From Kiritimatiellia bacterium (GTDB taxonomy: Bacteria > Verrucomicrobiota > Kiritimatiellia > CAIQIC01 > Lenti-01), in contig JAFXQI010000027.1 in the NCBI GenBank assembly GCA_017527155.1, forward strand, positions 12,628 to 76,627: a stretch of 64,000 nucleotides of DNA, given 5' to 3'. Positions 4,036-61,907 of the stretch are shown here, piece by piece (position 1 is the first letter of the stretch; the number at the start of each line of letters is the position of its first letter). Position numbers and translations under genes: made by a program. The notes below the pieces were generated by a model that was given only the letters and a program-made list of their open reading frames with translations, did no database searches and was not told the DNA's origin.

Positions 4036-4084
4036 GGATCGGCAGGGGGGCACCAGGCGAAAAACGGGACCGCGGGGAGGCGGG

Positions 4085-6740: not shown

Positions 6741-6804
6741 TTTTCCAATGGTTGGAAAAAAAGTTTCCAATGGTTGGAAAATTTTTTTCCAATGGTTGGA
6801 AAAC
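6741..6804. repeat. Array of 3 copies of the 19-bp palindrome TTTTCCAATGGTTGGAAAA with ~22-bp period, read as a candidate operator or protein-binding array
   Basis: Direct reading. It is AT-rich in GC-rich DNA. The same palindrome is arrayed at 47.6 kb and 57.4 kb. Confidence 0.7.
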
Positions 6805-13395: not shown

Positions 13396-14144
13396 AGAAG
13401 CGCCGCCTGGACGTGCTGGTCGCCGCGCGCGGCCTCGCCGAGAGCCGCGAAAAGGCCCAGCGGCTCATCCTCGCCGGCGAAGTGCTCGTCGACGACGCGC
13501 CCGCCGGCAAGCCCGGCCACGAATATCCCGAGGACTGCGCCATCCGCGTCCGGCATCCCGAACGCTACGTCGGGCGCGGCGGACTCAAGCTCGACGGCGC
13601 CTTCGAGTCGTTCGCGGGGTTCGACCCGACGGGGGTGGTTTGCGCCGACGTCGGCGCCAGCACCGGCGGCTTCACCGACTGCCTCCTCCAGCACGGCGCG
13701 GCCAAGGTGTACGCCATCGACGTCGGCCACGGCCTGTTGCATCCGCGCATCGCCAACGACCCGCGCGTCGTCGTCATGGATGGCGTCAACGCCCGCAACC
13801 TCCAGGCCGCCGACCTGCCCGAAGCCGTCGATTGCGCCGTCACCGACGTCTCGTTCATCTCCCTCAAACTCATCCTTCCCGCCATCGACCGCATCCTGCG
13901 TCCCGGCGGCCAGGTCGTCGCCCTCATCAAGCCCCAGTTCGAAGCCGGACGCGAAGACGTCGGCCGCGGCGGCGTCGTTCGCGACGAAGCCGTCCGAGCC
14001 CGCGTCGTCGAGGAAATCCGCGCTTTCGGGACGGGAGAGGTCGGCTGGGAGTGGCTTGCCTGCCGCGAATCGCCCATCAAGGGGCCCGCGGGCAACGTGG
14101 AGTTCTTGAGCTGGTGGAGGAAGAAGGAGGGGGGGGCCAACTAG
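13392..14144 (+). CDS. tlyA: TlyA family rRNA (cytidine-2'-O)-methyltransferase
   Basis: S4 domain N-terminus (RLDVLVAARGLAESREKAQRLI) plus FtsJ-like MTase (CADVGASTGGFTDCLLQHGAAKVYAIDVGHG). The conserved tlyA-nadK order is kept. Confidence 0.85.
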   Translation: MKKRRLDVLVAARGLAESREKAQRLILAGEVLVDDAPAGKPGHEYPEDCAIRVRHPERYVGRGGLKLDGAFESFAGFDPTGVVCADVGASTGGFTDCLLQHGAAKVYAIDVGHGLLHPRIANDPRVVVMDGVNARNLQAADLPEAVDCAVTDVSFISLKLILPAIDRILRPGGQVVALIKPQFEAGREDVGRGGVVRDEAVRARVVEEIRAFGTGEVGWEWLACRESPIKGPAGNVEFLSWWRKKEGGAN

Positions 14145-14185
14145 ATATCTAGATATCTAGATATCTAGATTTCTAGGTATCTAGG
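14141..14185. repeat. (CTAGATAT)3-CTAGATTTCTAGGTATCTAGG palindromic repeat overlapping the tlyA TAG stop. It places stops in all six frames.
   Basis: Direct reading. CTAG is otherwise rare in this GC-rich DNA. Related TCTAGATATCTAG copies lie at 42013-42050 and 60024-60040, each at a TAG stop. Confidence 0.7.
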
Positions 14186-36252: not shown

Positions 36253-37347
36253 TCAGCTCAGGCGGATGGGCATGAGGACGTAGACGAAGCTGACGGTGGA
36301 GCGGATGACGCCGGGGGAGGTGTCGTCGATGAGGTCGAGGTAGACTTCGTCGGTCGTCAGGTTCTTCAAGGGGTCCATCAGGAAGGCCGGGTTGAAGGAG
36401 ATGGTGACGTCCTTGCCGGAGTACTTGACGGCCATGCGTTCGCGGGCTTCGCCGATGTCGGGGGCCGTGGCGAGGATTTCGAGCTGGTCGGCGCCGAAGG
36501 TGAGCTTGACGCCGCTCACCGCGTCGCTGACGAGCTGGGAGGTGCGCCGGATCGCCGTCAGGAAGCTGTCGCGGTCGAGGGTGACGCGCTCGCCGCTGGC
36601 CTGGGGGACGACCTGGCGGAAGTTGGGATAGACGCCTTCGACGAGTTTGCTGGTGACGAGGATGCTGCCGTATTCGAAGGCCGCCAGCTTGGGCGTGGCG
36701 GAGATGCGGATTTCGCCTTCGCTGCCCAGGGTGCGGAGGAGTTCGTCGACGGTCTTGAGCGGGACGATGAGGTCGGCTTCGTCGCTCTCGGGGATGGCGA
36801 GTTCCTGCTCGACGAGGGCCAGGCGGCGGCTGTCGGTGGCGACGGCGCTCAGCCGTCCGCCCTTGAAGCTCAGCAGGACGCCGTTGAGCAGGGTGCGGTT
36901 GGCGTCGGTGCTGGCGGCGTAGCTGGTCAGGCGGAGCATGTTCTTGAAGACGCCCTGGTCGAGGGTGAAGGTCTTGGCGCCGTCGAGGGCGACCTGCGCG
37001 GGGTAGTCCTCGGCCCCGAGGCCGTTGATCTTGAAGTCGCTGCTGCCGGAGTGGATGGAGGCGACGTTCTCGGGGCTGATGTCGAGTTCGGCGGTGTCGA
37101 CGGGCAGTTCGCGCACGACGCCGAAGATGCGCTTGGGCGGCAGGGTGGTGGTGCCGGGTTCGGCGACTTCGGCCTCGATGGCGGTCTTGACGGTGAGGCT
37201 GGTGTCGGTGCCGGTCAGTTCGAGGTGGCCGTCCGCCGCGCGGAAGAGTACGTTGGACAGCACGGGCAGGGGGTTGCGGGTGTTGATCACCGACTGGACC
37301 TGCTGCAGGGCCGTGATGAAGGCGTCCTTGTTGACTTTGATTTTCAT
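36253..37347 (-). CDS. dnaN: DNA polymerase III beta sliding clamp
   Basis: [21 protein letters not shown]... 364 aa with three-domain clamp similarity. It lies directly downstream of dnaA. Confidence 0.9.
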
Positions 37348-37611
37348 GTGCCGTCTCCGGTTGGGATACTGTTGGTTTTCAAAAAGAGTTTTTGATTTCT
37401 CTTATTCTTATGTCCTGTTCACGCTGTGCATATCATCACAACGCCTTGTTTTCAAGGGGCTTTTGCGGTCCCGCGGCTGTTCGCAACAGGCCCCCTCCCC
37501 CCTGTGCGGAATGTGCGCAACCCGGCGTTGTCCACAGGGCGGGGAGGTTTTCGACAGGTTGTGCACCGCCGGTGCACGCGGTTGTCGACAGGGTTGCCGG
37601 GCGCGCGCGCA
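37348..37611. promoter_or_regulatory. Candidate oriC in the dnaA-dnaN intergenic region: an AT-rich unwinding element plus a cluster of high-GC-type DnaA boxes
   Basis: The AT-rich stretch is 37350-37440 (ttggttttcaaaaagagtttttgatttctcttattcttatg). TTGTCCACA, TTTTCGACA, TTGTGCACC and TTGTCGACA fall within 37525-37600. Confidence 0.55.
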
Positions 37612-39009
37612 TCAGTTGGGGGCCGCGACGGTGCCGAGGCGCTGCTCGAGGGAGAGGATGGTCTGGCGCAGGGCGGCGTCGGTCTTCATCTTCTGGCCGA
37701 TGAGGCGGTGGGCGTGCAGGACGGTGGCGTGGTTGCGGCCGAAGGCGTTGCCGATGGCCGGCAGCGACTGGCCCGTCATCTCGCGGCACAGGTACATCGC
37801 CACCTGGCGCGGGAAGGCGATGTTCTGCGGCCGCTGCTTGCTCGTCATGTCGCCGAGGCGGATGTCGTAGTGCTCGGCGACGAGCCGCTGGATGCCCTCG
37901 ATGGTGAGCGCCGTCTGGTTCTCCTGCTCCAGCGTGTCGCGCAGGAGGTACTCGAGGGTTTCCTGCGTGAGCGCCTTCTTGGTGAGCGAGAGGTACGAGG
38001 TCACGCGCAGCAGCGACCCCTCCAGCTTGCGGATGTTCGAGCGGATGTGCTCGGCGATGAAGAAGAGCGCGTCGTCCGGCACCTGCAAATCCATCTGTTC
38101 GCGCTTGCGGCGGAGGATCGCCACGCGCGTTTCGAGGTTGGCCATCTCCATCTCGGTGACGAGGCCCCACTCGAAGCGCGAGACGAGGCGCTTCTGGAGG
38201 TTCGCGATTTCGCTCACCGGCCGGTCGCTCGTCAGGACGATCTGCTTCTGGTTCTCGTAGAGGGTGTTGAAGGTGTGGAAGAACTCCTCCTGGATGCCCT
38301 CCTTGCCGGCGAGGAAATGGATGTCGTCGATCAGCAGCATGTCGATCCCGCGGTACTTCTTGCGGAAGTCCGCGATGGCGTGCTGCTGGATGGCCTGGAT
38401 GTACTCGTTGGTGAACTTCTCGCTGGAGATGTAGCAAACGGTCCCCTTCTTCCCCTTGAGCACCGCGTCGCCCATCGCCTGGATGAGGTGCGTCTTGCCC
38501 AGCCCCGTCCCGCCGTGGATGAAGAGCGGATTGTACGCCCTGCCCGGCGCCTCCACCACCGCCAGCGCCGCCGCGTGCGCGAACGTGTTCGACGGCCCCA
38601 CCACGAAGTTCTCGAACGTGTTCTTCGGGTTCAGCGGACTCCCCACGTTGCAGCTGCGGACCGCGGCCTTGCGCGAGGGGGACTTCGCCGGCGCGGCCGG
38701 CGGCACCCCGCCCTGGAGCCGCTCCTCCGGCATCTCCCGCAGCTGGCGCGAGGCGTCGACCGCGAAGTGGATCGCCGGATTCTCGCACCCCGCCGCCGAG
38801 AGCGCCTTGCGGATGTGGGGCATGAAATTCTCCACCAGCCAATCCTGGTAGAAATCATTGGGCACGGTGAGCGTCAGCTGGCTCTCCCCGAGGTCGTCCC
38901 CGGCGGCGTCGATGACGCCGATCCAGCGCTCGTATATGTCCGGCGACAGCACTTCCGCGAGGAACTCCCGCGCCTTCTTCCAATATTCAATTGCCTGTTT
39001 CTCTTGCAC
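37612..39009 (-). CDS. dnaA: Chromosomal replication initiator DnaA. Start called at GTG 39009; an alternative GTG is at 39072.
   Basis: Domain I ([13 protein letters not shown]), AAA+ Walker A ([10 protein letters not shown]), and the domain IV DNA-binding helix ([16 protein letters not shown]). Confidence 0.9.
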
Positions 39010-39099
39010 GACACAAACCCTGTTACCCGGCGGGCGACGCACGCAACTATCGCACGAAACCCCGCGCGGCACAAACCAAATGGTGACCGGACGCCGATG

Positions 39100-39586
39100 A
39101 CTCCCGCCGTCCGCCGTTCCGTCGCCCCGGAAAAGTTATCAACAGGTTGTTCACACTGCCCATCCTTTCCTTGGCTCCGAAAACGGCCCCGACGATAACG
39201 GCCGACCGCCCCCTTGGCAAGCCCGGGCCGCATCCCGATGGCAAAAACCGAAACGCCACAACATCCAGCGATGCCAAACTGGCACACCCACAACATCCTG
39301 TATCTTGAAAAAACTTCCCGCAAACCGCTTGACAGCACCGCTTCCCCACCTAACTGCTTGATAACAGCCCCCGATAGACCGCGGCTTCCCCGTTTTCCGG
39401 CCCTTTTCCGGCAAGTAATCCACAACGGCCTCCGCTCCGCCGTTCCAACTCCTTGTCCCGTCCGCGCATCCGTCCACGCCGCTTTCCGCCCGCGTTTTTG
39501 GACTTGCAAAACCCGCCCCCCGCGCGCACCTTCCCGCGTGGCGCGACGGTGCGCCTCCAACCACAACGTCCAACAGGGAGAACAAG
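39100..39586. promoter_or_regulatory. Divergent promoter region between dnaA and the rubrerythrin gene, with scattered DnaA-box-like 9-mers
   Basis: TTATCAACA (39135), TTGTTCACA (39146) and TAATCCACA (39414). This could be a second origin cluster or DnaA autoregulation sites. Confidence 0.4.
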
Positions 39587-42012: not shown

Positions 42013-42050
42013 CCCTTCTAGAAATCTAGAGTCTCTAGATATCTAGTTCC
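42013..42050. repeat. TCTAGAAATCTAGAGTCTCTAGATATCTAG palindromic CTAG cluster directly after a TAG stop
   Basis: Direct reading. Same family as 14141-14185 and 60024-60040. Confidence 0.65.
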
Positions 42051-47424: not shown

Positions 47425-47545
47425 CTTCCAGACAGGTGGGGCGAGCTCTCCGAGCGAGCCGTTCCAACCGATTGAGCGGCTCGCACGGAGTGCTCGCCCC
47501 ACCACGGGGCGGCCACCGCTCCAACGCCGTTCGCCGAAGCGGAAT
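47425..47545. repeat. 122-bp repeat containing the imperfect-palindrome hairpin element. It is the left copy of a direct-repeat pair.
   Basis: ~95% identical to 49265-49386: cttccagac-ggtggggcgagctctccgagcgagccgttccaaccg-ttgagcggctcgcacggagtgctcgccccaccacggggcggccaccgctccaacgccgttcg-cgaagcggaa. Confidence 0.8.
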
Positions 47546-47595: not shown

Positions 47596-47729
47596 TTTTC
47601 CAATCATTGGAAAACCGCCGAAAAATTTTTCCAATCATTGGAAAATTCCGGCCATTTTTTCCAACCATTGGAAAAATGTTTTCCAATCATTGGAAAACTG
47701 GCGTACAATTTTTCCGATCATTGGAAAAC
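47596..47729. repeat. Array of 5 copies of the 19-bp palindrome TTTTCCAATCATTGGAAAA with ~25-30 bp period, immediately upstream of a small ORF
   Basis: Direct reading. Same palindrome as at 6741-6804 and 57410-57513. Confidence 0.75.
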
Positions 47730-49264: not shown

Positions 49265-49386
49265 CTTCCAGACTTGGTGGGGCGAGCTCTCCGAGCGAGC
49301 CGTTCCAACCGTTTGAGCGGCTCGCACGGAGTGCTCGCCCCACCACGGGGCGGCCACCGCTCCAACGCCGTTCGTCGAAGCGGAAA
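49265..49386. repeat. Right copy of the 122-bp hairpin-element direct repeat
   Basis: See 47425-47545. Confidence 0.8.
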
Positions 49387-50595: not shown

Positions 50596-53500
50596 TCACG
50601 TCCTGCGCAGGGTGAGGACGGGGAGAAGGATGGCGGATTCTTCGGTGGCGTCCTTGGCTTTCCAGGCGACGATGAAGCCGACGTGGGCTTCGCGGACGGC
50701 ATAGCCCCGGGCTTCGCGCTTGCGGATTTCGGCCAGGGCGGCCTTGGAGAGGCGGGCCACCCGCACGCCGGTGGCGGACACCAGGTCGCCGTCTTCGTAC
50801 GCCAGCGGGCTGCCGCTGCGGAGGCGGAAGATGTCCTTCTTGCGGTCCTTCGAGAAGTCCAGCCAGACGTCCTTGTGGGAAAGGTGCAGGGTGAGTTCGG
50901 GCGGTTCGGGATAGGGGGTGTCGTCCCGGAGGAAGCGGGCGCCGGGCGTCCGGCACGCCCCGAAGAGGCCGCTGTTGCAGTGGATGTACAGGCGGTTCCG
51001 GGCGCGGGTGATGCCGACGTAGAGCTTGCGCCGGGCGTCGTCGTCCGCCGCCGCTTCGTCCCGCAGCAGCATGTACACGGTGTCGAATTCCCGCCCCTTG
51101 GCCTTGTGGATGGTCGAGACGAAGACGGTCCCCTTGCCGCCGCCGCAGAAGTCTTCCAGCCTGGACTCGAAGGCGAATTCCCGCAAATCGCTCCGGTAGC
51201 GGATCCGCTGGACGCTTTCGAACTGCCGGAAGAACTCGCGGACGGCGTCGATGCAGGCGCTGTCGGCGTAGCGCGAAAGGGTTTCCTCCTTGGCTTCTTC
51301 CCATGCGTCGGCGCCGATGGCGGGCGTCGCGGTCTTCCGGTCGATGCGCCGGAGGAAGTATCGCACTTCGGCCAGGTCGGAGAACCGGAATCCGTCCACC
51401 GACTGGATGAGCCGCGCGGGAATGCCGGCCCGCGCCAGGGCGCCCGCCGCCTGGGCGGCTTCGTCGTTGGTGCGGACGAGGACGCAGGCGGTTTCGCCGC
51501 GCCAGGTGCTTTTCACCTGTTCGACGAGGGGCAGCACCATCTCCGCGGAGGCGTGCCGGACGATTTCCACCTCCCCGGGGTCGTCGCGGACGGCGATGCC
51601 CGGACGGCGCTTCATCCGGTTGCCGATGGTTTGGGCGAAGGCGTTGGCGAATTCGACGATGGCGCGGGCGCTGCGGTGGTTTTCGACCAGCTCGTAGCGG
51701 CCTTCCGGCCCGCCGCCGGCGAGCGCGGCCATGTAGCGGCTGTCGGAGCCGCGGAAGGCGTAGATGTTCTGGTCGTCGTCGCCCACGGCGATCACGCGCA
51801 TTTCCTCGTTGGCCCGCATCAGGGCCCGCACCAGGGCGTACTCGCCGGCGTCCATGTCCTGCGCCTCGTCGATGACCAGCACCGACTTGGCGATGCGGTT
51901 CGGCTCCACCCCGCCGCTTTCGATCAGCCGGACGGCCTCGCCGACCACGTCCCCGGCCTCTTCCAGGTTGCCGACGCGTCCCAGGAGGTCGAAGCTGTAG
52001 GAGTGGAAGGTCTTGATTTCGACGAAGTGGGCGGCGTTGCCGACGAGGTCGAGCAGGCGGCGCTTGAATTCGGTGGCGGCGGCGCGCGAGAAGGTCAGCA
52101 TGAGCAGCTGCTCGTGCTTGACGTCTTCGAGCAGCAGCAGCGAGGCGAGCTTGTGGACCAGGACGCGGGTCTTGCCGCTGCCGGGGCCGGCGGCGACGAC
52201 GATGCGCGCCGACCGCTTGTCGCCGATGATGGCCCGCTGGGTGTCCGAGAGCGCGCCTAAGAGCTGTTGGTGCTTGCGCGGGGTGATGTTCCTGCCGATT
52301 TCCGCCAGGCGATCGCCCTTGAAGTACTTGGCGATGAACTTGCGGAAATCCATCTGGAAGTAGTCCCGCACGTACCGCAGGGCGGCGGCGTAGTCCTTCA
52401 CCATCAGGTTGGCGTATTCGCCGACGATGTGGATCTGCCGGATCTTCTGCTTGTAGAACTCGTCGAGCATCCGGTAGTCCTCGACCTTGTACCGGTTTTT
52501 CATGTCGGCGAGACGGTGGATTTCCATGGCGTTGTAGATGACCAGGAAGCCGCCCTCCAGCTTCATGGCGCCGATTTTCGAGAGGTAGAGCAGCGCGTCC
52601 TCGATTTCGTCGATGCGGAAGGGGCCGCCCTCGGCGAACAGCGCGCGTTCCCGCCGCGCGGAGAGTTTCTCCAGCAGCTCCGTGACCGAGAACTGGATCG
52701 GCACCGCCCCGCCGCCGCCGCCGGAACCGGACGCGGCGCCGGCCGGCGCGTGGAGTTCGTGGACGGCGAAGCGGCAGATTCCGATGCGGCGGGCCTGTTG
52801 CCGGAGCGTCCGCTCCGCATCCAGCGCCGTCACCATGCGGAGCCGCCCCGTAGCGGCGTCTTCCTGCTTGCGGATGATGGATTTGACGGTCAGGAAGTAG
52901 AGGAGCGTGCGGATGTTTTTCACCGAACTGCCGGCGATGCCGCCTTCGAGGGCCCGCTCGTTGAGGGCCTTGAGGGTCAGGTCGGCCTCCTGCCGGGCGA
53001 TCTCGCCGAGCAGGAAGCGCTCGAGCGCGGCGAAGCGTTCCAGGGTCCTGGAGGTGGCGGCCTCCGAGCGGTCGATCCAGGCGGACAGGTCGCGCGAGTC
53101 GGCGAGGATGCCTTCCTGGCGCATGCGGGTGATGGCGCCGATGACGGCGGCCTTGTCCAGCCCGAGGATGTCGGCGAGGTAGTCCACCCGCGAATCGGCT
53201 TCCCCGTCCTGCCGCGCCCCGGCGATCTGCTTGCTCGAAATCAGCGACTTGATGATCCGGATGGCGTCCTGCCGCCCCCCGTCGTCGAACAGGGGCGATT
53301 CCGCGATGCGGCGGCGCGCCTCGTCCATGTTCCGGACCATGATGCCGGTGGCGAAGACGTGCGGGACGTTGTTGCCGCGGCGCACGTAGCCGGCCTCCTC
53401 CAGGGCGGCGACGGCGGTCCGCACGCGGGTCTCGACGTCCGGCACCTCGTCGTTCCAGCCCGCCTGCCGCGCGATTTCGAGGGCGCTGCAGGCCACCTGC

Positions 53501-55452
53501 GGGCGCTGGCGGGTGAGGGTCTTGATGGCGCTCCAGACCTGCTGGATTTCGCTCAGGCTCAGCTTGGTCTGGTTGAGCAGGATGAAGTGCTTGTCCAGGT
53601 CCTGGTCGCTGTAGAGCACGTGGCACTTGGCGGAGGTCTGCGGGTCGCGGCCGGCACGGCCGGCCTCCTGGACGTAGTTTTCGAGCGAGTCGGAGATGTC
53701 GTAGTGCACCACCAGGCCCACGTCCTTCTTGTCCACGCCCATGCCGAAGGCGGACGTGGCGACGATGGCGCGGACTTCGTTGAGGATGAAGGCGTTCTGG
53801 TTCGCGATCTTCTCGGCGGGGTCCATCTTGCCGTTGAACGGCAGCGCGGGGATGCCGTCCCGCGTCAGCTTGTCCGCGAGGTCGCGCGTCCGCTTCGTGC
53901 GCGAGACGTACACGATGGCCGGGCATCCGCCGCCGAGCAGCAGGCTGCGCAGGTGCCGGTACTTCTCCTCCTCGGTGTCCGCGTGGATGACCGAATACTG
54001 CAGGTTTTCCCGGGTGGCGGACGACGCGAAGAGCCGCAGGTCCAGCCCCAGCTTCGCCCGGAAGTAGTCGCGGATGTCGGAGACCACCTTCTGCTTCGCC
54101 GTCGCCGTGAAGCACGAGACGGGAATCGCCGCACCCTCCCCCTTCTTCTCCCGCAGCTTGCGGATGAAGTCGCCGATGTAGAGGTAATCGACGCGGAAAT
54201 CCTGCCCCCACGCGGAAAAACAGTGCGCCTCGTCGATGACGAACCGCACCACGTTGCGCGAGAGCAGCAGCTTCTCGACCGTCTTCGACCGCAGCATTTC
54301 CGGCGAGATGTACAGCAGCGACGCCGATCCGTCCGCCACCCGCCCGATCGCCTCCGCGCGGCTCAGCGGGTCGAGCAGGCCGTTGACGGTGACCGCTTCC
54401 GTGACGCCCCGCGCCGCCAGGTTGTCCACCTGGTCCTTCATCAGCGACTGCAAGGGCGAAATGACCACCGTCAGGCCGTGCACCGCCCGCCCCTGCATGA
54501 GCGCCGGCAGCTGGAAGGTGAGCGACTTGCCGCCGCCCGTCGGGAAAATGGCCAGCAGCGACTCGCCGTCCACCGCCGCCTGCACCGCCCGCTCCTGCAT
54601 GGGCTCGCCGTCGAAGAGGCGGAAGGCGTCGTAGCCGAAGATGCTCCGCAGCCCCTTGTGGATGTCCAGCTTGTCGCGGCAGTACGCGCACCCTTCCCGG
54701 CAGGGCGTGCCGCACAGGGCCTTCAGGACATGCTCCACGCGCGGGAATTGGTGCAGCACCCACGGCGGCGTCGCGGAACTCCCGTCGCCCGTGTTGACCA
54801 GCGCCAGCGCGTAGGCCAGTTCGCGCGGCATGGCGTCCGCGAGCCCCGCCAGGTCCGCGTGGGCGCAGATCCGCCCCGCGAAGGCTTTTTCGACGAGATC
54901 CGCGGCATCCCCACCGCCTGGCGCCATCCCCAGGAAGGCGAAAAACCCGCCGAACTCCTCGAAGGGCGACAGCAGCGCGCGGAAAACCGCCTGCAACTCC
55001 CCCGGCAGCGCCCGGAATGCATTCACCTCGTCGAAGAAAAGGTCCCGCGCCTTCTTCGCGTCGTTGAGCGGATTGTTCAGCTCCTCGGTCTGCAGCTTGT
55101 CGTCCTTCAGCAGCCGGTGGTAGGGCCGTTTCGGGAACAGGAGGGGCGAAAGATACAGCGTGTCGATGGCCGGTTTGCCGCGGATTCCCGGAACGGGACC
55201 CGCCAGGTACTTCAAATCGTGGTGCACGATGTTGTGCCCGCAGAGGAACCCGGCGCCGGCCGTGAACCGCGCGAACTCCGCCGCCGAAGCCGTGTGCAAC
55301 TTCCGGTTCGCCCCCTGGCACGCCCCGTAATCATGGATCCGCCCGTCCGCCACCCCGACTTCGACATCGATGAACGCGACCTCGTCGAACCGCCCGCCGC
55401 CGTCCCCGCCCAACGCCTTGTTGCCCTGCACTTCCATGTCGCACCCGTCCAT
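50596..55452 (-). CDS. ~1,618-aa tri-domain protein: N-terminal DnaQ-like DEDDh 3'-5' exonuclease + RecQ-family helicase core + C-terminal UvrD/Rep-like SF1 helicase
   Basis: Exo motifs FIDVEVGV (I), GHNIVHHDLKYL (II), NPLNDAKKA (III). RecQ motifs LAIFPTGGGKSLTFQLPAL and VIDEAHCFSAWGQDFR. SF1 motifs VVAAGPGSGKTRVL, VIDEAQDM, VENHRSARAIV, TIHKAKGREFDTVYML, LYVGITRARNRL. Confidence 0.8.
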   Translation of the reverse strand: MDGCDMEVQGNKALGGDGGGRFDEVAFIDVEVGVADGRIHDYGACQGANRKLHTASAAEFARFTAGAGFLCGHNIVHHDLKYLAGPVPGIRGKPAIDTLYLSPLLFPKRPYHRLLKDDKLQTEELNNPLNDAKKARDLFFDEVNAFRALPGELQAVFRALLSPFEEFGGFFAFLGMAPGGGDAADLVEKAFAGRICAHADLAGLADAMPRELAYALALVNTGDGSSATPPWVLHQFPRVEHVLKALCGTPCREGCAYCRDKLDIHKGLRSIFGYDAFRLFDGEPMQERAVQAAVDGESLLAIFPTGGGKSLTFQLPALMQGRAVHGLTVVISPLQSLMKDQVDNLAARGVTEAVTVNGLLDPLSRAEAIGRVADGSASLLYISPEMLRSKTVEKLLLSRNVVRFVIDEAHCFSAWGQDFRVDYLYIGDFIRKLREKKGEGAAIPVSCFTATAKQKVVSDIRDYFRAKLGLDLRLFASSATRENLQYSVIHADTEEEKYRHLRSLLLGGGCPAIVYVSRTKRTRDLADKLTRDGIPALPFNGKMDPAEKIANQNAFILNEVRAIVATSAFGMGVDKKDVGLVVHYDISDSLENYVQEAGRAGRDPQTSAKCHVLYSDQDLDKHFILLNQTKLSLSEIQQVWSAIKTLTRQRPQVACSALEIARQAGWNDEVPDVETRVRTAVAALEEAGYVRRGNNVPHVFATGIMVRNMDEARRRIAESPLFDDGGRQDAIRIIKSLISSKQIAGARQDGEADSRVDYLADILGLDKAAVIGAITRMRQEGILADSRDLSAWIDRSEAATSRTLERFAALERFLLGEIARQEADLTLKALNERALEGGIAGSSVKNIRTLLYFLTVKSIIRKQEDAATGRLRMVTALDAERTLRQQARRIGICRFAVHELHAPAGAASGSGGGGGAVPIQFSVTELLEKLSARRERALFAEGGPFRIDEIEDALLYLSKIGAMKLEGGFLVIYNAMEIHRLADMKNRYKVEDYRMLDEFYKQKIRQIHIVGEYANLMVKDYAAALRYVRDYFQMDFRKFIAKYFKGDRLAEIGRNITPRKHQQLLGALSDTQRAIIGDKRSARIVVAAGPGSGKTRVLVHKLASLLLLEDVKHEQLLMLTFSRAAATEFKRRLLDLVGNAAHFVEIKTFHSYSFDLLGRVGNLEEAGDVVGEAVRLIESGGVEPNRIAKSVLVIDEAQDMDAGEYALVRALMRANEEMRVIAVGDDDQNIYAFRGSDSRYMAALAGGGPEGRYELVENHRSARAIVEFANAFAQTIGNRMKRRPGIAVRDDPGEVEIVRHASAEMVLPLVEQVKSTWRGETACVLVRTNDEAAQAAGALARAGIPARLIQSVDGFRFSDLAEVRYFLRRIDRKTATPAIGADAWEEAKEETLSRYADSACIDAVREFFRQFESVQRIRYRSDLREFAFESRLEDFCGGGKGTVFVSTIHKAKGREFDTVYMLLRDEAAADDDARRKLYVGITRARNRLYIHCNSGLFGACRTPGARFLRDDTPYPEPPELTLHLSHKDVWLDFSKDRKKDIFRLRSGSPLAYEDGDLVSATGVRVARLSKAALAEIRKREARGYAVREAHVGFIVAWKAKDATEESAILLPVLTLRRT

Positions 55453-56159
55453 TCGCCCCAAGAAGCTACAAGGAGAGCCCGCCCCCCGTCAACGCCATTT
55501 GCCCCGCTTTCGCCTTGGGGCCAAGTCGACCTCGGAAAGGAGGAATGCCGGAGCGCGGGCGGCCCGCCCGCTTTCCTTTCGCAAATCGACCGCATCCCCT
55601 CACTATCCCCTCCCTTCCGCCCCACTCCCAAGGCCCCATGGTTTTCCATGGTGGTGAGGATGCATGGAATCATGGAGAAAACAAGGGGTTTCCCGTAATT
55701 GCAAATGAGTCTCCCCGGCCTCCGTTTTGTGGTCCGGGCGGCAAGCGGGAGGAAAGAACCGACATGGATGTCTCGAATGCCGCTTCGCGGACACGAATGG
55801 CTTCTACGAGGAAGGGTGGATTGTGTAAGTGAAAGCGGGCGGGCTGGGAGCGCGGGCGTCCCGCCCGCGAAGCTTTTGGAAAGGGGAAAACAAGCGAAAA
55901 GGCCCATGTTTTCCATAATCTCGCATCCAGCGGCGCGGCTGAAAGACCGTACCGCATCTTTTCACTTTTCACTGGTCACTTGTCACTGCGCCCGAAGGGC
56001 GCTACGGCATCCTGCCGCGCCCTTGCGGATGGAGAGCGGGAGGGGAGAAAAAGACAAACAGGACACAGGGGACAAGGTTGCGGGAGGGGAGAGGGAGGGA
56101 TGGGGAAGCGGGCAGGCCGCCCGCGTTCCGATAAAGGGGACTTGAAGGGAAACAGGCCG

Positions 56160-56993
56160 CTACTTCAGGTATTTGCGGGTGCCGACTTCGGAGAGGATGC
56201 GCATTTGCTGGATGGCGATGGCATTGAGTTTCTGCAGGCGCTGGGACTGGGGGAGGCCGTCGTGGATCAGGACGGCATTGATGTTTTCCAGGTTGGATAG
56301 GCAGATGAGCTGGTCGACGGTGGCATGGTCGCGCTGGTTGCCCTTGAGGGAAGGATTCGCTTCCTGCCACTGCCGGTGGGTTTGTCCGAAGAGGGCGACG
56401 TTGAGCACGTCCGCTTCGCTGGCGTAAATGACGCTCGTCTGGGCACGGGAAACGGCGGGCGGCACGAGATTGCGCAGGATGGCGTCGGTGTGGATGCGGT
56501 AGTTGATCTTGGCGAGTTCTCGCTTGGCCGACCAGCCGACGAGTTCCTGCTCCCGGGCTTTGAGGCGCTGGAATTCCCTGACGATGTAGATCTTGAATTC
56601 CGCCGAAATCCACATCGCGAACTCGAAGGCAATGTCTTTGTGCGCGAATGTCCCGCCATAACGCCCGGCCCTCGAAACCAGGCAGGCGGCGTTCGTGCGT
56701 TCCGTGAATTCCTGCACCCCGATCTTGAAGGAGTGGAGGCCAGCCTGGTTTCTAATTGTGGCGAATTCGCCATAATTGAAGGCCGGGTTGTAGATGCGTT
56801 CCCAGATGCCGATGTACTCCAGGGTATTGCGGTTGCGCAACCAGTCCGTGATGAAAAACTCGCCATCCTTCGCCTTGAGCATGTCGGTGAGGCAGATGTA
56901 GTCTTCGTCCCCGACTTTGGCCACGCGGACAAGGGTGCCGCGGATGTCGAGTTCTCCCGAGGTCTTTGGTGGCATGTTCGTGGGCTTTTGCAT
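56160..56993 (-). CDS. KilA-N domain-containing protein (phage/plasmid-type DNA-binding domain)
   Basis: LVRVAKVGDEDYICLTDMLKAKDGEFFITDWLRNRNTLEYIGIWE is the KilA-N fold. The gene is ~56-58% GC against a ~70% background. Confidence 0.8.
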   Translation of the reverse strand: MQKPTNMPPKTSGELDIRGTLVRVAKVGDEDYICLTDMLKAKDGEFFITDWLRNRNTLEYIGIWERIYNPAFNYGEFATIRNQAGLHSFKIGVQEFTERTNAACLVSRAGRYGGTFAHKDIAFEFAMWISAEFKIYIVREFQRLKAREQELVGWSAKRELAKINYRIHTDAILRNLVPPAVSRAQTSVIYASEADVLNVALFGQTHRQWQEANPSLKGNQRDHATVDQLICLSNLENINAVLIHDGLPQSQRLQKLNAIAIQQMRILSEVGTRKYLK

Positions 56994-57268
56994 GATTGGA
57001 ACTTTTCTGGATTCTTGGGGATGGCGTTGGGCGGCATCATGGCATGTTCCGTACTGGGTTCAAGCATAAAAGAGAACGTTTAGACAACAAATCGGGATTG
57101 TACGCAACGGTGCAGGTTCCGCAATGCGGGGAGAGCGCTGCAGGCGGGGAGTGGGCGTGGCTGAAAGCCGCACATCCCGAGTGGGGGATTGCAGTGGGGG
57201 GATTGGAGAGCAAGGGCGGGCCGTCCGCGTTCCGACCAAAAAGGCGAGGCGCCCGCGGGCCGGCGGGG

Positions 57269-57355
57269 TCACTCGTCGGGCATGGCGGCTTCGATGCGGT
57301 TGTCGAAGAGGGTGCAGTCGGCGAAGAAGTCGAGGCGGACTTCGCCGGTGGGGGC
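57269..57355. other. Displaced duplicate of the dnaB 3' end (last ~28 codons + stop), ~85% identical to 60501-60587. Read as an att-like target duplication.
   Basis: tcactcgtcgggcatggcggcttcgatgcggttgtcgaagagggtgcagtcggcgaagaagtcgaggcggacttcgccggtggg versus the dnaB end. The translated fragment PTGEVRLDFFADCTLFDNRIEAAMPDE matches PTGEVRLNFFADYTRFDNRIETASPDE. Confidence 0.75.
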
Positions 57356-57409
57356 GTCGATCCCGGCTTGGGTTTTGCACAATCCGGCAGCCCGGCGGGG
57401 GAGGGCGGG

Positions 57410-57513
57410 TTTTCCAATGATTGGAAAAAATTTTTCCAATGGTTGGAAAAAATGGGACGGATTTTCCAATGGTTGGAAAAAATTTTCGCGCATTTTCCAA
57501 TGATCGGAAAAGT
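57410..57513. repeat. Array of 4 copies of the 19-bp palindrome TTTTCCAAT(G/C)RTYGGAAAA
   Basis: Direct reading. Third array of this family. Confidence 0.75.
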
Positions 57514-58157
57514 TTTTCGGGTCGTTTTTGGGAAACAAAAGGAACAAAGGGGGCAACAAAACAAGGGGTGGACAAGGAATGTCAGACAATCATGACCATT
57601 TCCGGCAATTCATCGAGAAGGCAACTTGGACAACTACAAGAATGTCTCGAATGCCGCTTTGCGGACTTGAATGGCTGGGAGACGGGAGGAATGCCTACAT
57701 GAAAACAAAGAAAACCGCTTGGCGGACAGGAACGCTTGGAGGGCGGATGGGGGGAGACAACTTGGAGACGGAAAGGGGCGGAGCCTTTTTCCCGGGGCGC
57801 GGCTGAAAGCCGCTCCTCCCAACCGCGGGCGGGACGCCCGCGCTCCCAGTGAGCGCGGCTGGAAGCCGCACATCCGGAGGAGGGGGGTGGGAGGGATTTC
57901 AGCCGCAAAGGACACAAAGGGCACAGAGGGGGGGGAGGCGGGAGGGAGGCGGATGGACCGTCGGGGGGAAAAAGGGGGCAGAGCGCGAAACACCCGACCC
58001 TTGGAAAACTCCCGCGCGGGGACGGGATTCGGGCTTGCCAGGCAACGGTTGTTTTGGGTAAAAGAGCGGCGTGTACAGGAAATCCGGAAATGGAGGAAAG
58101 CCCGTGGATTTGAAGGCGAAATGGAATCGGTGGAGGCCGGTCGGGAGCGCGGAAACG

Positions 58158-60032
58158 ATGGCGGCGGGGCTGGCGCTTTGGTTCGCCGCGGTGAGCGTGC
58201 TGTTCGCGACGCCGATGGCCGTCGAGGGAATCGGCGGGACACGGGCGTTGTGGCCGATGGGGGTCGGTGTCGTCACGGGGGGCTTGCTGGGCGGGGCGGG
58301 CATGCTTTTCGCGGCATTCGGCGGAGGGGGGTTCGCGGTGGAGGAGTACGGGCGCAAGCGCGGCGGATGGAGGGTCTTGGCGTGGTGGCTGGCCGGGGCG
58401 CTGCCGGCGTTGGTGCTGGGATGCGCCTGGAACGGGGTTCTGGCGGCGCCCGCGGCGTGGCGCCGGGGGGACCGTCGCGGGACGGCGGCGGCGGCGGCGG
58501 GAGCGGTGTTGCTGGGCGGGGTCGCGCTGGCAACCCGTTTTTCCCGCGATGTGCGGGCGGGCGCGTGGCCGGTGCCGCTGTGGGCGGTAACGGCGCTCAA
58601 CGCGGTCTCGGCGGCCCTGCTGCTGCGGGGGCTGTGGCGTTTGGGCGGCCGCGCGGATTTCCTGCGGCGCACGGCGTGGACGATGGCCGCGCTGGCGGCG
58701 GCGGGGCTGGCGCTCTGGCCGGGATGGCGCGTCGGGCGGCAGGTCCGCCGCGCGGAGGATGCGATGGCGGTGCTTTGGGCGGAGACGGAATGGCCGGGCG
58801 GTCGGGCGATGCCGCCGGTGGCGGAAGCGGACGACCCCGTGGCGGCCCTGGATGCCACCGCGCTGGAGGCCTCGGAGGGCGAATGGCGCCGCTTCGCGGA
58901 GGAGCTTGATGCCGGACGGCGTCCCGGATGCCCGGCTTACCCGCTGGCGGACGCCGAGTGCGCGGCGGCGGAGGCGTGGCTCGCGGCGCATCCGGACGCG
59001 CTGGGGAAGGCGGTGGCGGTGTCGTCTCCCGGCTACCGCTCGTGCCTGCCGGGCGCGGCGGCGCCGGAGGATTACGGTCCCGCAGGCATCGCCTGGCTGG
59101 AACCGCGGCTGGACGGCTGCCTGGACTGGTGCCGCCCGCTCCTGCTCCGGGCGGCGGTGGCGCTGGCGCGGGGCGATACGGCGGCGGCCATGACGGACAT
59201 CCGGCTCGTCCATTCGCTGGCGGAGCGGCTGATGGGCGAGGGGTGCTTCATCGGACAGCTCATGGGGGTTGCCGTGGCGGACATGCTGCCCGCCGTGGCC
59301 GGACAGCGCTTCGACCTCTGGACGGACGGCGAACTGGAGGCGCTCGCGGCTCTCGCCGGCTCGTATGCCGGTGCGGCGGAGCGTTCGTGGCGGCTGGCGG
59401 TCGGAAACGAGGCGGCGTTTTTCGACGGGTGCCTGCGGGTGGTCGAAGCGGACTTCGCCAAAACCGGCATCGTGGACATCGACGGGGAGAAGGCGGAGGG
59501 GATGCGCATGGAGTCGCCTACCGCGCCGCGGCCGTCGCAGGATTTCGTGGCGTTCCGGCACTGGATGGCGACCGAGCGGCTGGCGTACGCCCGCGGGCTG
59601 CTGCGCCTGCATCGGTCCCTCGCGGCGGCGCTGGCGCTTCCGGCGGGGCCGGAGCGGGCGGCCGCGCTCTCCGCGCTCAAGGCCGACGCCGGGGAAACGG
59701 AAAAGCGCCTGCCGCATCTCGCGGCGTTGTGTTTTCCGACCGTGGACGGCTTCGTGAACCTGGGAACGCACGGCGGAAACCACGCGTCGGCCATGCGCGC
59801 CGCGGTGGCGGTGGAGCGCTGGCGGCGGACCCACGGCGGGGCGCTGCCGGAGTCGCTGGAGGTGCTGGTCCCGGACTGGCTGGACGCGGTGCCGTCCGAC
59901 GGGGAACTGGGCGCCCCGATGCATCTCGAAAAAGGGGAGGACGGGCGGAGCTTCGCAATCCGGCGCCCGGAGGGTGCCGGGTGGCGGCAGTTCAAGGGGT
60001 GGTTTCGGGTGGGTGGGGGTCAAGGTCTCTAG
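58158..60032 (+). CDS. Hypothetical membrane protein with a large soluble C-terminal domain. The start is uncertain (GTG 58071 or ATG 58158).
   Basis: N-terminal TM helices (AAGLALWFAAVSVLFATPMAV; WRVLAWWLAGALPALVLGCAWNGVLAAPAAW). Third-position GC codon bias is on the + strand, and the overlapping minus ORF is an Arg-rich shadow. It ends in the CTAG palindrome. Confidence 0.5.
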   Translation: MAAGLALWFAAVSVLFATPMAVEGIGGTRALWPMGVGVVTGGLLGGAGMLFAAFGGGGFAVEEYGRKRGGWRVLAWWLAGALPALVLGCAWNGVLAAPAAWRRGDRRGTAAAAAGAVLLGGVALATRFSRDVRAGAWPVPLWAVTALNAVSAALLLRGLWRLGGRADFLRRTAWTMAALAAAGLALWPGWRVGRQVRRAEDAMAVLWAETEWPGGRAMPPVAEADDPVAALDATALEASEGEWRRFAEELDAGRRPGCPAYPLADAECAAAEAWLAAHPDALGKAVAVSSPGYRSCLPGAAAPEDYGPAGIAWLEPRLDGCLDWCRPLLLRAAVALARGDTAAAMTDIRLVHSLAERLMGEGCFIGQLMGVAVADMLPAVAGQRFDLWTDGELEALAALAGSYAGAAERSWRLAVGNEAAFFDGCLRVVEADFAKTGIVDIDGEKAEGMRMESPTAPRPSQDFVAFRHWMATERLAYARGLLRLHRSLAAALALPAGPERAAALSALKADAGETEKRLPHLAALCFPTVDGFVNLGTHGGNHASAMRAAVAVERWRRTHGGALPESLEVLVPDWLDAVPSDGELGAPMHLEKGEDGRSFAIRRPEGAGWRQFKGWFRVGGGQGL

Positions 60033-60284
60033 ATATCTGGAGCCGGAAAGGGTCTGGCTCCTTTCCCCTGCGTTTCAAGCACTGGGAGGACGGGCGCCCT
60101 CGCCCGTCTTCGTGCATGGGGCGCGCAAAAGGGGCGGCCCGGATGCCAGTTGGAGAAGGCCCAAAGGGAAAGGCAAGGAAAAGAGGCCGGACTCCGAATC
60201 AGGTCCATTTCTCCCGTTATCCAGCCGTTTCCTCGCGGGCGGGAGGCTGGCGCTTTGGCAGGCCGGGCGCCTCCCTTTCGCTTT

Positions 60285-60357
60285 GGACGGGCGGGGGCGC
60301 CCGTCCTCCCAGTTCTGGGGCATCCCTTGCGCTTGGGACGGGCGGGGGCGCCCGTCC
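60285..60357. terminator. Two tandem GC-rich perfect hairpins (GGACGGGCG-GGGG-CGCCCGTCC) between a convergent hypothetical gene and dnaB
   Basis: Hairpins at 60285-60306 and 60336-60357 within ~50-bp tandem direct repeats (cgctttggacgggcgggggcgcccgtcc). Confidence 0.4.
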
Positions 60358-60500
60358 CCCCAGTCCGGGAGGGGCATTTGCAATTACGGGAAAAGCTGGG
60401 GTTTTCTGGGATTTTGGGGCATGGAAGAGGCCATGAAAATGTGCGGCCTGCCGGTGGGGGGTGGATGGGGAAGCGGGCGGGGTGGCCGCGCGCCGGCGGG

Positions 60501-61907
60501 TCACTCGTCGGGGGAGGCGGTTTCGATGCGGTTGTCGAAGCGGGTGTAGTCGGCGAAGAAGTTGAGGCGGACTTCGCCGGTGGGGCCGTTGCGGTGTTTG
60601 GCGACGTCGACGATGGCCAGGGTCAGGTCGTCGCTGTCTTTGCCTTCTTTGTAGTAGCTGGGACGGCGGAGGAGGAAGACGATGTCGGCGTCCTGTTCGA
60701 TGGCGCCGGAGTCGCGCAGGTCGGAGAGTTTGGGGATGGCGTCTTTTCCGCGGCTTTCGGGGGCGCGGGAGAATTGGCTGAGCACCAGGACGGGGACCTG
60801 GAGTTCCTTGGCCATGGCTTTGAGGTTCTGGGAGATGGCAGCGGTTTCCTGCTGGCGGCCGTCGCGGGCGCGAGCGGAGCAGTTCAACAGCTGGAGGTAG
60901 TCGACGACGATGAATTCGATGCCGTATTTGCGCTTGAGGCGGCGGGCGCGGGAGCGGAGTTCTTCGACTTCGAGGCCGGCGGTGTCGTCGACGTAGATGG
61001 GGGCGCGGGAGAGTTCGTCGGCGGCCTGGACGAGCTGGGCGTGGTCGCCGGCGCCGAGGCGTCCGGTGGAAAGGTCCTTGGCGGAGACGTGGGCGCGGCA
61101 GCAGATCATGCGGCGGACGAGGGCTTCGGCGGACATCTCCAGGCTGAAGACGGCGACGGGGCGGACGGGCTGGCGGCGGGCGCCGGTGGCGACGTTTTCG
61201 GCGATGTTGAGGGCAAGGGAGGTTTTGCCCATGGAGGGACGGGCGGCCAGGATGAGGAGGTCGCTCTTTTGCATGCCGAGGAGTTTGGCGTCGATGTCGA
61301 CGAAGCCGGTGGAGATGCCGGTGAGGGACTTTTTTTCGGAAAGGAGGCGCTCGGCTTCGACCATTTCCTGTTTGACGAGGTCGCGCCAGGGTTTTTCGGT
61401 GCCGGCACGGTTTTCGGAGAGGGCGAAGAAGGCGGATTCGGCGCGCTCGAGGACGCCTTCGGCGCCGAGGTCGGCGCGGTAGCAGGATTCGGTGACTTCG
61501 CGGGCGGCGTCGAGGACGCGCCGGAGGAGGTGGTTTTCGAAGACGCGCTTGATGTAGTATTCGGCGTAGGCGACGGAGGTGGCGCGGGAGACGATGGCCA
61601 GGAGGGCGTCTTCGCCGCCGGCGGCTTCGAGGCGCCCGGTCTGGGTGAGGTGTTCGACGAGGGCCGGGATTTCGAGGGGGCGGTGGGCGGCCGCCATCTC
61701 GAGCATGGCTTCGTAGATGGTGCGGTGGCCGCTGAGGTAGAAGGATTCGGGGACGAGTTGGTGGACGCGGCAGAGGTCGAGCATGGTCTCGGGGTCGAGG
61801 AGGACGGCCCCGAGGGCGATGGCCTCGGCTTCTTCGCTGTAGGGCGGGAGCAAAGCGCCGGGACGGGCGGCCGAAGCCTCCCGTCCCGTTGGGTCCGGAA
61901 TGGACAT
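60501..61907 (-). CDS. dnaB: Replicative DNA helicase
   Basis: N-terminal domain PPYSEEAEAIALGAVLLDP, Walker A ARPSMGKTSLALN, IVVDYLQLL, QFSRAPESR. Confidence 0.9.
   Translation of the reverse strand: MSIPDPTGREASAARPGALLPPYSEEAEAIALGAVLLDPETMLDLCRVHQLVPESFYLSGHRTIYEAMLEMAAAHRPLEIPALVEHLTQTGRLEAAGGEDALLAIVSRATSVAYAEYYIKRVFENHLLRRVLDAAREVTESCYRADLGAEGVLERAESAFFALSENRAGTEKPWRDLVKQEMVEAERLLSEKKSLTGISTGFVDIDAKLLGMQKSDLLILAARPSMGKTSLALNIAENVATGARRQPVRPVAVFSLEMSAEALVRRMICCRAHVSAKDLSTGRLGAGDHAQLVQAADELSRAPIYVDDTAGLEVEELRSRARRLKRKYGIEFIVVDYLQLLNCSARARDGRQQETAAISQNLKAMAKELQVPVLVLSQFSRAPESRGKDAIPKLSDLRDSGAIEQDADIVFLLRRPSYYKEGKDSDDLTLAIVDVAKHRNGPTGEVRLNFFADYTRFDNRIETASPDE

Follow-up and report, generated by a model that had tools for sequence, protein, structure and literature searches.

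The dnaB locus and its second end

We analyzed a 64,000-nucleotide stretch of contig JAFXQI010000027.1 (the window; 68% G+C content, GC) from an uncultured rumen Kiritimatiellae bacterium, focusing on a 3.1-kb segment (57356–60500) that lies behind dnaB, between two copies of the dnaB 3′ end. dnaB is the final gene of the minus-strand operon rpsF-ssb-rpsR-rplI-dnaB. The gene is intact at 468 aa, and its product scores 449.6 against the NCBIfam equivalog TIGR00665 (cut-off 385), which marks it as a true replicative helicase. dnaA (37612–39072), dnaN, mnmE, mnmG, and recBCD all lie in the window, with the dnaB locus ~22 kb from dnaA; no tRNA genes were found. A sheep-rumen Kiritimatiellae metagenome-assembled genome (MAG; JAFYAC010000080.1, hereafter L001) and a second rumen MAG, RUG11196, each encode a DnaB 99% identical to that of the window. 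The features on which the argument rests are as follows.

60501–61907, minus strand: dnaB, chromosomal replicative helicase, the fixed left anchor of the variable slot (Pfam DnaB and DnaB_C; TIGR00665)
60476–60589, minus strand: repeat copy 2, the working dnaB tail (last 29 codons, ending ...RFDNRIETASPDE*) with 26 nt past the stop, from alignment
57243–57357, minus strand: repeat copy 1, the displaced dnaB tail, a pseudogene fragment (APTGEVRLDFFADCTLFDNRIEAAMPDE*), from alignment
57358–57409, no strand: 52-nt linker between the displaced tail and a palindrome array, its junction conserved in the related strains L001 and L088 (~91% identity to L001 16123–15961)
57410–57511, no strand: array of four 19-bp palindromes (TTTTCCAATSRTTGGAAAA) with start-to-start spacings of 22, 30, and 31 (0 matches expected by chance)
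57606–57952, plus strand: upstream intergenic modules common to L001 and L088, including a ATGTCTCGAATGCCGCTTYGCGGAC motif, from sequence comparison
58158–60032, plus strand: gene for a 624-aa membrane protein (653 aa from an upstream GTG), an open reading frame (ORF) with a third-position GC (GC3) of 0.87

A reading of the DNA from its letters alone (the sequence-only reading) had proposed that direct repeats of the dnaB 3′ end delimit the segment, and these repeats are real. An ungapped alignment pairs 57266–57357 with 60498–60589 (92 nt, 91% identity), and a gapped alignment widens the match to 57243–57357 against 60476–60589, ~115 nt at 88–91% identity, reaching 26 nt beyond the stop codon. 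The window holds these two copies only: searching the 64 kb with a 19-mer taken from the repeat gave exactly two hits, where 0.02 would be expected by chance. The repeat is not part of a longer generic repeat, and relatives differ in gene order around it; the opposite outcome in either case would have spoken against the sequence-only reading. An assembly artefact was ruled out by three independent ENA assemblies with the same layout (L059, L060, and L061) and by the 9% difference between the copies; shorter contigs with an identical DnaB also run into the same membrane-protein gene.

The copy that now completes dnaB is the unusual one. It translates as GPTGEVRLNFFADYTRFDNRIETASPDE*, and its last seven codons are unlike the IEAAMPDE tail of sister strains. 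That common ending, ...IEAAMPDE*, closes the working dnaB of L001, L002, L069, and L088, and the identical ending is found on the window's displaced copy. Over 87 nt, the displaced copy differs from the sister-strain working tails at positions 2, 25, 41, and 47 only. All four differences change an amino acid, two of them hitting the Y and R of a YTRF motif that is retained even in L003, whose DnaB is just 70% identical. The displaced copy also keeps its former terminator-like hairpin (57244–57256), and the sequence on its 3′ side corresponds to what flanks the working dnaB in L002 and L069. Given the sister-type tail, the hairpin, the matching flank, and the exclusively amino-acid-changing differences, the displaced copy is the former working end of the gene, now a dead pseudogene fragment of the last 29 codons of dnaB. 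Automatic gene callers annotate it as a hypothetical protein of 74–92 aa, an annotation trap that this assignment corrects.

The window's working tail, in turn, departs from the sister tails at positions 67 and 73–75 only, such that the two window tails together form a reciprocal mosaic relative to sister strains. More broadly, the last seven DnaB residues occur in four versions, ETASPDE, EAAMPDE, ETTAPDE (with a TAA stop), and ETAGPDE, among the window (60501–60521), L001, L067–L071, and L088, on dnaB genes that are otherwise 94–98% identical.

Close strains fill the slot differently

Strains with dnaB genes 96–99% identical show at least four different arrangements downstream of the gene. 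Alignment of these regions, which the sequence-only reading had proposed as a way to expose an empty site, was informative. In L068 and L071 (dnaB 97–98% identical), a single dnaB end is followed by a DUF3791-DUF3990-DUF3791 cassette and then by an ortholog (91%) of the KilA-N gene that stands beyond the displaced tail in the window. An ORF6N gene, a BspA/BACON surface protein, and a GIY-YIG protein come next, with no membrane-protein gene, array, or second dnaB tail within 5–10 kb. The site without the membrane-protein gene is thus not strictly empty, as it holds the DUF3791/DUF3990 cassette.

L001 and L088 carry three dnaB fragments each. The second has the same left junction as in the window, including the 52-nt linker and the array (91–92% identity), and a counterpart of window 57606–57952 follows at 85–97%. 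The membrane-protein gene is missing. The slot instead contains a YhcG/DUF1016 nuclease gene in L001 and a KilA-N-like gene in L088 and in L069; in L001 and L088 it also contains a bPH protein and a stretch of 47–51% GC. In L001 (13000–15500), this stretch of the slot encodes the bPH-domain protein along with ORFs that lack annotation; set within a 68% GC genome, it is clearly of foreign origin. Beyond the displaced tail the next gene differs as well, being an AAA_14/DUF4143 ATPase in both strains and not KilA-N.

Because the array and ~550 nt next to it persist in strains that lack the membrane-protein gene, they belong to the conserved right boundary of the slot and not to the cargo. The earlier assignment of the array to the segment's own cargo therefore falls: array, linker, junction, and 57606–57952 persist at 85–92% in L001 and L088, and further arrays exist in the window. 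What sets the window lineage apart is ~57953–60458 alone. Divergence at the junction (~9%) is near the synonymous, or neutral, divergence estimated from dnaB in the same strains (40 differences in 1407 nt), as fits a junction passed down from a shared ancestor, with the cargo replaced later.

The third dnaB fragment in these strains (L001 17645–17779, equivalent to L088 6389–6523) has a different history. It joins DnaB residues 272–296 to the C-terminal tail through a deletion at a CCGCC microhomology, with the stop codon lost, and its left junction lies at DnaB residue ~272 and not at codon −29. This composite structure is evidence of an older, longer dnaB duplication. In the more distant L003, bamA follows dnaB immediately, which limits the hotspot to the lineage of the window.

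Boundary hairpins and defense-type neighbors

In L068, L071, L088, and L001, a GC-rich palindromic module of ~55 nt (core GGAGCGCGGGCGGCCCGCCCGC, with a 17-nt GC hairpin) stands behind the stop codon of dnaB and behind that of every cassette gene in the same orientation. Within the 64 kb it is confined to the hotspot, and none was detected at window positions 1–55 kb. The module copies and the genes they accompany in the window are listed here.

60446–60497, minus strand: boundary module directly after the dnaB stop (nhmmer E=2.7e-7)
57201–57237, minus strand: weaker copy after the displaced dnaB stop (nhmmer E=5e-4)
56160–56993, minus strand: KilA-N domain gene, 277 aa, former downstream neighbor of dnaB (Pfam KilA-N; PADLOC PDC-S22, E=3e-119)
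56088–56139, minus strand: boundary module after the KilA-N stop (nhmmer; E=1e-11 and 5e-11 together with the next copy)
55546–55595: inverted copy of the module upstream of the giant helicase gene (nhmmer)
50596–55461, minus strand: giant helicase, a 1621-aa fusion of a RecQ/DpdF-like DEAD-box half and a UvrD/GajB-like half (PADLOC, NCBIfam)

Cassettes change places at these modules. The DUF3791/DUF3990 cassette of L068 and L071 is bracketed by direct copies of the module with no duplication of dnaB, and YhcG and the KilA-N-like gene interchange between the dnaB stop and the next module. Since swaps occur at the stop codon and at boundary hairpins in addition to the dnaB tail, the breakpoints of the hotspot are heterogeneous.

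Several genes at the locus match candidate defense families. PADLOC places KilA-N in PDC-S22, a candidate family of single-gene phage defense, YhcG in PDC-S02, and the AAA_14 ATPase in PDC-S01, likewise candidate families. In the giant helicase, PADLOC recognizes DpdF-like and GajB-like domains and NCBIfam RecQ-family and UvrD/PcrA-type domains. By these family assignments, the hotspot includes candidate phage-defense genes. The window KilA-N protein is 91% identical to the product of the gene that follows dnaB in L068 and L071.

The sequence-only reading had seen no recombinase in the segment, and a wider survey agreed. We found no integrase, transposase, or recombinase domain in the segment, in ~45 window ORFs tested, or in the tested ORFs downstream of dnaB in L001, L068, L069, L071, and L088.

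Two further observations concern these neighbors. The KilA-N protein has more than 8000 homologs at E<1e-30, with 75–84% identity across many metagenome contigs, one of them labeled Thermoguttaceae; the homologs are solitary genes among housekeeping genes, and this wide spread points to a very widely transferred single-gene module. The boundary hairpin does not travel with KilA-N genes, as it is not beside KilA-N homologs in other bacteria. The giant helicase is 99% identical in L001 (1–4167), where it lies upstream of prs and in the opposite orientation relative to dnaB; its changed position and orientation indicate a large rearrangement around the dnaB operon between the two strains.

A probable remnant in a hotspot

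With moderate confidence, we interpret the segment as the present occupant of a slot that varies between strains, part of an accessory, candidate phage-defense hotspot at the dnaB 3′ end, and as a relic of one crossover whose cargo has been exchanged through conserved flanks. An old event would have put DNA into the last 29 codons of dnaB. In its simplest form, a dnaB-tail look-alike carried by an incoming circular DNA would have undergone a single reciprocal crossover with the tail of the chromosomal gene, an event that would leave a reciprocal mosaic such as the one observed. The incoming tail (...IETASPDE*) would now finish dnaB, and the old tail (...IEAAMPDE* with its terminator) would have moved 3.2 kb downstream to decay before its former neighbor KilA-N. 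From then on, dnaB and its GC-rich boundary hairpin would fix one edge of the slot, and the other edge would consist of the displaced tail, the linker of 52 nt, the array, and the upstream modules. Strains would exchange the cargo in between by homologous recombination in the conserved flanks, the membrane-protein gene being passive cargo.

The segment has no recombinase and is neither an autonomous nor a demonstrably mobilizable element. Of the two options offered by the sequence-only reading, a mobilizable miniature island or a remnant, the second, placed in a hotspot, fits better.

Several points weigh against this account. No outgroup has the hotspot (in L003, bamA follows dnaB), and the direction of the event rests without one. 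Loop-out between the repeats could have removed the segment from strains that now have one dnaB end. Only 8 differences make up the mosaic, and the chance that all 4 differences of the displaced copy fall in its left half is ~0.09. The source of the first tail-bearing circular DNA lacks an explanation. Finally, the sister sequences are all metagenome contigs of 3–39 kb, and the far end of the hotspot and the rest of the genome lie beyond them.

A possible integrase-borne origin

A scan for dyads located a candidate crossover core in each dnaB tail.

57288–57309, minus strand: candidate crossover core of the displaced copy, TCTTCGA-CAACCGCA-TCGAAGC (dyad scan)
60520–60541, minus strand: candidate crossover core of the working copy, GCTTCGA-CAACCGCA-TCGAAAC (dyad scan)

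In sister strains the core is a perfect 7-8-7 inverted repeat, GCTTCGA-CAACCGCA-TCGAAGC, that encodes RFDNRIE. It is the sole perfect 7-nt inverted repeat with a 6–8-nt spacer in the 1.4-kb dnaB, set against a background of 0.72 per kb. These features raise the possibility, which we regard as rather unlikely, that the segment is the remnant of an island inserted at the 7-8-7 core by a site-specific tyrosine-type recombinase whose gene was lost or acts from elsewhere. The palindrome array beside the displaced tail would then be a set of accessory-protein sites on the element's arm.

Insertion into the 3′ end of a conserved gene with the frame restored is a hallmark of integrase islands, and several details of the locus suit such an event. 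All differences between the two copies fall outside positions 48–66, and this putative crossover interval coincides with the only dyad of its kind in the gene. The window copies are reciprocal hybrids with one perfect and one variant arm each, and the core block is the best-preserved part of every relic. Four C-terminal tails occur among dnaB genes that are ~97–98% identical (32–40 differences in 1407 nt), and all four working-tail variants part from position 67 onward. L001 and L088 have two tandem relics, as repeated use of one site predicts.

Set against these details, no integrase, excisionase, or mobilization gene is present in the five strain variants or the window ORFs tested. The window and L001/L088 share one junction with the dyad in the crossover interval, but the third relic and the other swaps use different junctions: the third relic begins at DnaB residue ~272 and not at codon −29, with its internal deletion at CCGCC, and other breakpoints of the hotspot lie at the stop codon and the boundary hairpins. 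The dyad was spotted post hoc and from small numbers, and the variation of the last seven codons may reflect nothing more than a lack of constraint. IMG/VR contains no attP-like form or dnaB-tail look-alike, and two loci have the same array but neither a dnaB tail nor the core close to it.

Other explanations

The direction could also be reversed. In that case, the membrane-protein gene and the array would be native beside dnaB, and the displaced tail would have come in at the front of a chromosomal fragment from another strain (dnaB tail, terminator, KilA-N, and onward), joined illegitimately 52 nt from the array. We consider this improbable. It draws on the host-like GC3 of the membrane-protein gene (0.87), whose homologs are ordinary chromosomal genes, on the wide transfer of KilA-N as a solitary gene inserted among housekeeping genes, and on the statistical weakness of the mosaic. 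The strains speak for the opposite order of events, as the dnaB-cassette-KilA-N arrangement of L068 and L071, with no membrane-protein gene or array, is simpler if the adjacency of dnaB and KilA-N is the older state, and L001 and L088 keep the junction of array and tail with other genes on both sides. Moreover, the unusual tail is the window's working one and the displaced tail is of the common type.

More speculatively, and with still less expectation of being right, the dnaB tail and the ~55-nt hairpins might be recombination sites of an unrecognized cassette platform without an integrase of its own. A recombinase encoded at a distance would swap single defense-type genes through the 7-8-7 core in the RFDNRIE block, with phages that bear an identical 22-nt hairpin taking part. 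Such phages exist: the 22-nt core of the boundary hairpin (GGAGCGCGGGCGGCCCGCCCGC) has exact matches in three IMG/VR phage contigs (L161 1776–1797, L162 1771–1792, and L163 10076–10097). Two related phages have it in separate gaps between genes, terminase/portal in one and portal/MuF in the other, beside short tandem repeats, a placement suggestive of a small mobile hairpin.

Local tandem duplication of the dnaB tail and its downstream DNA by unequal sister-chromatid exchange, followed by divergence and replacement of one copy and involving no outside DNA, is very improbable: same-orientation direct repeats a few kb apart are its expected trace, and the third relic of L001 and L088 shows that longer dnaB duplicates were once present, but the sequence after copy 1 is unlike that after copy 2 save for the tail and the short boundary hairpin, and the working tail's departure from the species-typical tail would be left unexplained.

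Comparison with known systems

The closest known kind of locus is the core-gene-flanked defense hotspot of the Pseudomonas aeruginosa type. At the core defense hotspots (cDHS) cDHS1 and cDHS2 of that species, 29–47% of sites have no detectable mobility gene, and successive insertions that each add target sites have been proposed (Johnson et al. 2023; PMC10250203). The tandem dnaB relics described here are consistent with this successive-insertion model. As at the cDHS, a fixed core gene marks the locus, the content varies sharply between close strains, and known or candidate defense genes are present. Unlike the cDHS, the anchor is the 3′ end of dnaB itself, with a partial duplication of coding sequence, and the host is an uncultured member of the Kiritimatiellae. 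The cassettes are small, mostly of a single gene, and separated by one common GC hairpin, with one flank (dnaB) defined. The defense role here is predicted from PADLOC candidate families, and the membrane protein has no defense match.

Salmonella genomic island 1 (SGI1) at trmE is an example of an integrase-borne island in the 3′ end of a protein-coding gene (PMC8409611). Our locus resembles islands of this type in that direct repeats of the target 3′ end are present (~115 nt, 88–91%), the frame is restored by an element-borne look-alike (dnaB of 468 aa), the old end is displaced, and relics stack in tandem. It differs in having no integrase, excisionase, relaxase, or oriT-type module, in its host-like cargo, and in its heterogeneous breakpoints. 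Nor was the same element seen elsewhere or in circular form, as homologs of the cargo do not lie by dnaB, plasmid and phage collections were negative, and IMG/VR held no look-alike of the tail. We found no report in the literature of dnaB as an island target or anchor.

The arrangement also recalls integron arrays, with mostly single-gene, co-oriented cassettes, each bearing a conserved, imperfect 3′ palindrome, lined up behind a fixed site. Unlike integrons, the locus has no IntI or attI, the 17-nt GC hairpin within its ~55-nt module is not attC, and the membrane-protein gene is in the opposite orientation; the likeness is architectural only. No integrase was found in the ORFs tested and no Rfam match in 45–64 kb at E<=1, a dedicated attC model not having been run. 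A transposon or insertion sequence is equally foreign to the data, with no transposase domain, no terminal inverted repeats at 57358 and 60475, and a 115-nt diverged duplication that far exceeds a target-site duplication.

The segment is a well documented yet ordinary genomic-island hotspot that reveals no new kind of mobile element. It offers a worked example, from a poorly studied uncultured phylum, of the 3′ end of an essential gene anchoring a fast-changing accessory and defense slot. dnaB together with the boundary hairpin provides a simple marker for collecting candidate defense genes from rumen Kiritimatiellae metagenomes.

The membrane-protein gene

The single convincing gene between the repeats is 58158–60032 on the plus strand. 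The sequence-only reading had described a membrane protein of ~625 aa with no recognizable family. The product is 624 aa and has no match in Pfam, NCBIfam, or PADLOC, although it is not without relatives. Among 5.8 billion proteins we found five homologs, which lie beside prfA/rpmE, a UvrA-like gene, or DUF975, at unrelated chromosomal places and never next to dnaB. A profile search with the protein returned 25 proteins at E<1e-30 and 6970 at E<1e-3; the latter share its C-terminal ~280 residues and are uncharacterized, so that this part of the protein recurs in some 7,000 others. No Pfam domain covered the shared region in any of 10 hits checked (0/10). The gene was not found in plasmid and phage collections, and no paralog was detected elsewhere in the window.

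The prediction of topology and fold that had been called for gave a partial answer. The protein has 5–6 N-terminal hydrophobic helices, and its AlphaFold model (predicted local distance difference test, pLDDT, of 64) shows an all-helical soluble domain with a short C-terminal beta element. A Foldseek search of the PDB yielded no significant fold match (best E=0.14, mostly designed helical repeats). A conserved ...ERWRR.HG.LP.SL..LVP..L.AVP.D...G.P... motif appears to resemble a pseudopilin-type motif found widely in Planctomycetes, Verrucomicrobia, and allied phyla. We regard the protein as a candidate envelope protein, passively carried and with host-like codon usage.

Array, upstream modules, and hairpins between the repeats

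The array of four palindromes noted by the sequence-only reading is real, at 57410–57511. It belongs to a dispersed ~115-bp repeat, and two other related arrays lie in the window at 6741–6803 and 47596–47728. The copies at 47.6 kb, at 57.4 kb, and at L001 15961–16073 have common spacer sequences and a 31-30-22 spacing, and the 47.6-kb and 57.4-kb copies are mutually inverted. The spacing of 2–3 helical turns suggests a dimeric protein that would bind one face of the DNA. Three other roles were considered and rejected. The region upstream of dnaA has ordinary boxes of the TAATCCACA/TTGTTCACA type and no palindromes, which speaks against DnaA boxes or an origin feature. IMG/VR gave single chance matches and no arrays, in disagreement with a phage or satellite origin. 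The same array stands in L001 and L088 with no downstream gene on either side, and it is thus not a promoter of the membrane-protein gene.

Of the motif said to occur twice upstream of the membrane-protein and giant helicase genes, the pair is present at 55762–55802 and 57636–57676 (88% identity over 41 nt), together with a weaker third copy at 57697–57737. The upstream modules showed no convincing RNA structure; the ATGTCTCGAATGCC motif folds to a mere 4-bp hairpin with no real covariation. Rfam reported no family at E<=1 in window 45–64 kb, with only sub-threshold matches of miRNA models to the palindromes.

Hairpins follow the membrane-protein gene, in a greater number than the two first noted.

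60039–60061, plus strand: terminator-like hairpin GGAGCC-N11-GGCTCC followed by TTTCCCCT, 7 nt past the TAG of the membrane-protein gene
60078–60108, 60286–60316, and 60337–60364, no strand: three copies of a GC hairpin (GACGGGCG..CGCCCGTC), including a 51-nt tandem pair at 60259–60360

The TAG stop of the gene (60030–60032) lies within TCTAGA. The surrounding TCTAGATATCTGG (60028–60040) had been read as a CTAG palindrome with stops in all frames; it supplies one TAG per strand, in one frame each, the plus-strand TAG being the gene's own stop. The all-frame property belongs only to the tandem CTAGATAT array at 14141–14184, with 5.5 units of an 8-mer and stops in every frame on both strands. 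The palindromic motif CTAGATATCT(AG) stands at gene boundaries, with 16 matches in the window against 0.3 expected, and its sites include 14141–14184, 42018–42046, and 60029–60038.

Other features of the window

dnaN and dnaA occupy 36253–39586, with a 514-nt region upstream of dnaA that contains DnaA-box-like TAATCCACA and TTGTTCACA. The cumulative GC skew reaches its maximum near 38 kb, and 36253–39586 is probably the chromosomal origin region. A 284-nt tandem repeat lies at 3011–4046 (3.7 copies, 91% matches), its unit opening with a long GC hairpin. By eye, the arms of this hairpin are like those of the ~70-nt hairpins after gatB and near 49.3 kb (47436–47503 and 49275–49345), and these elements may together form a second family of long palindromic intergenic repeats.

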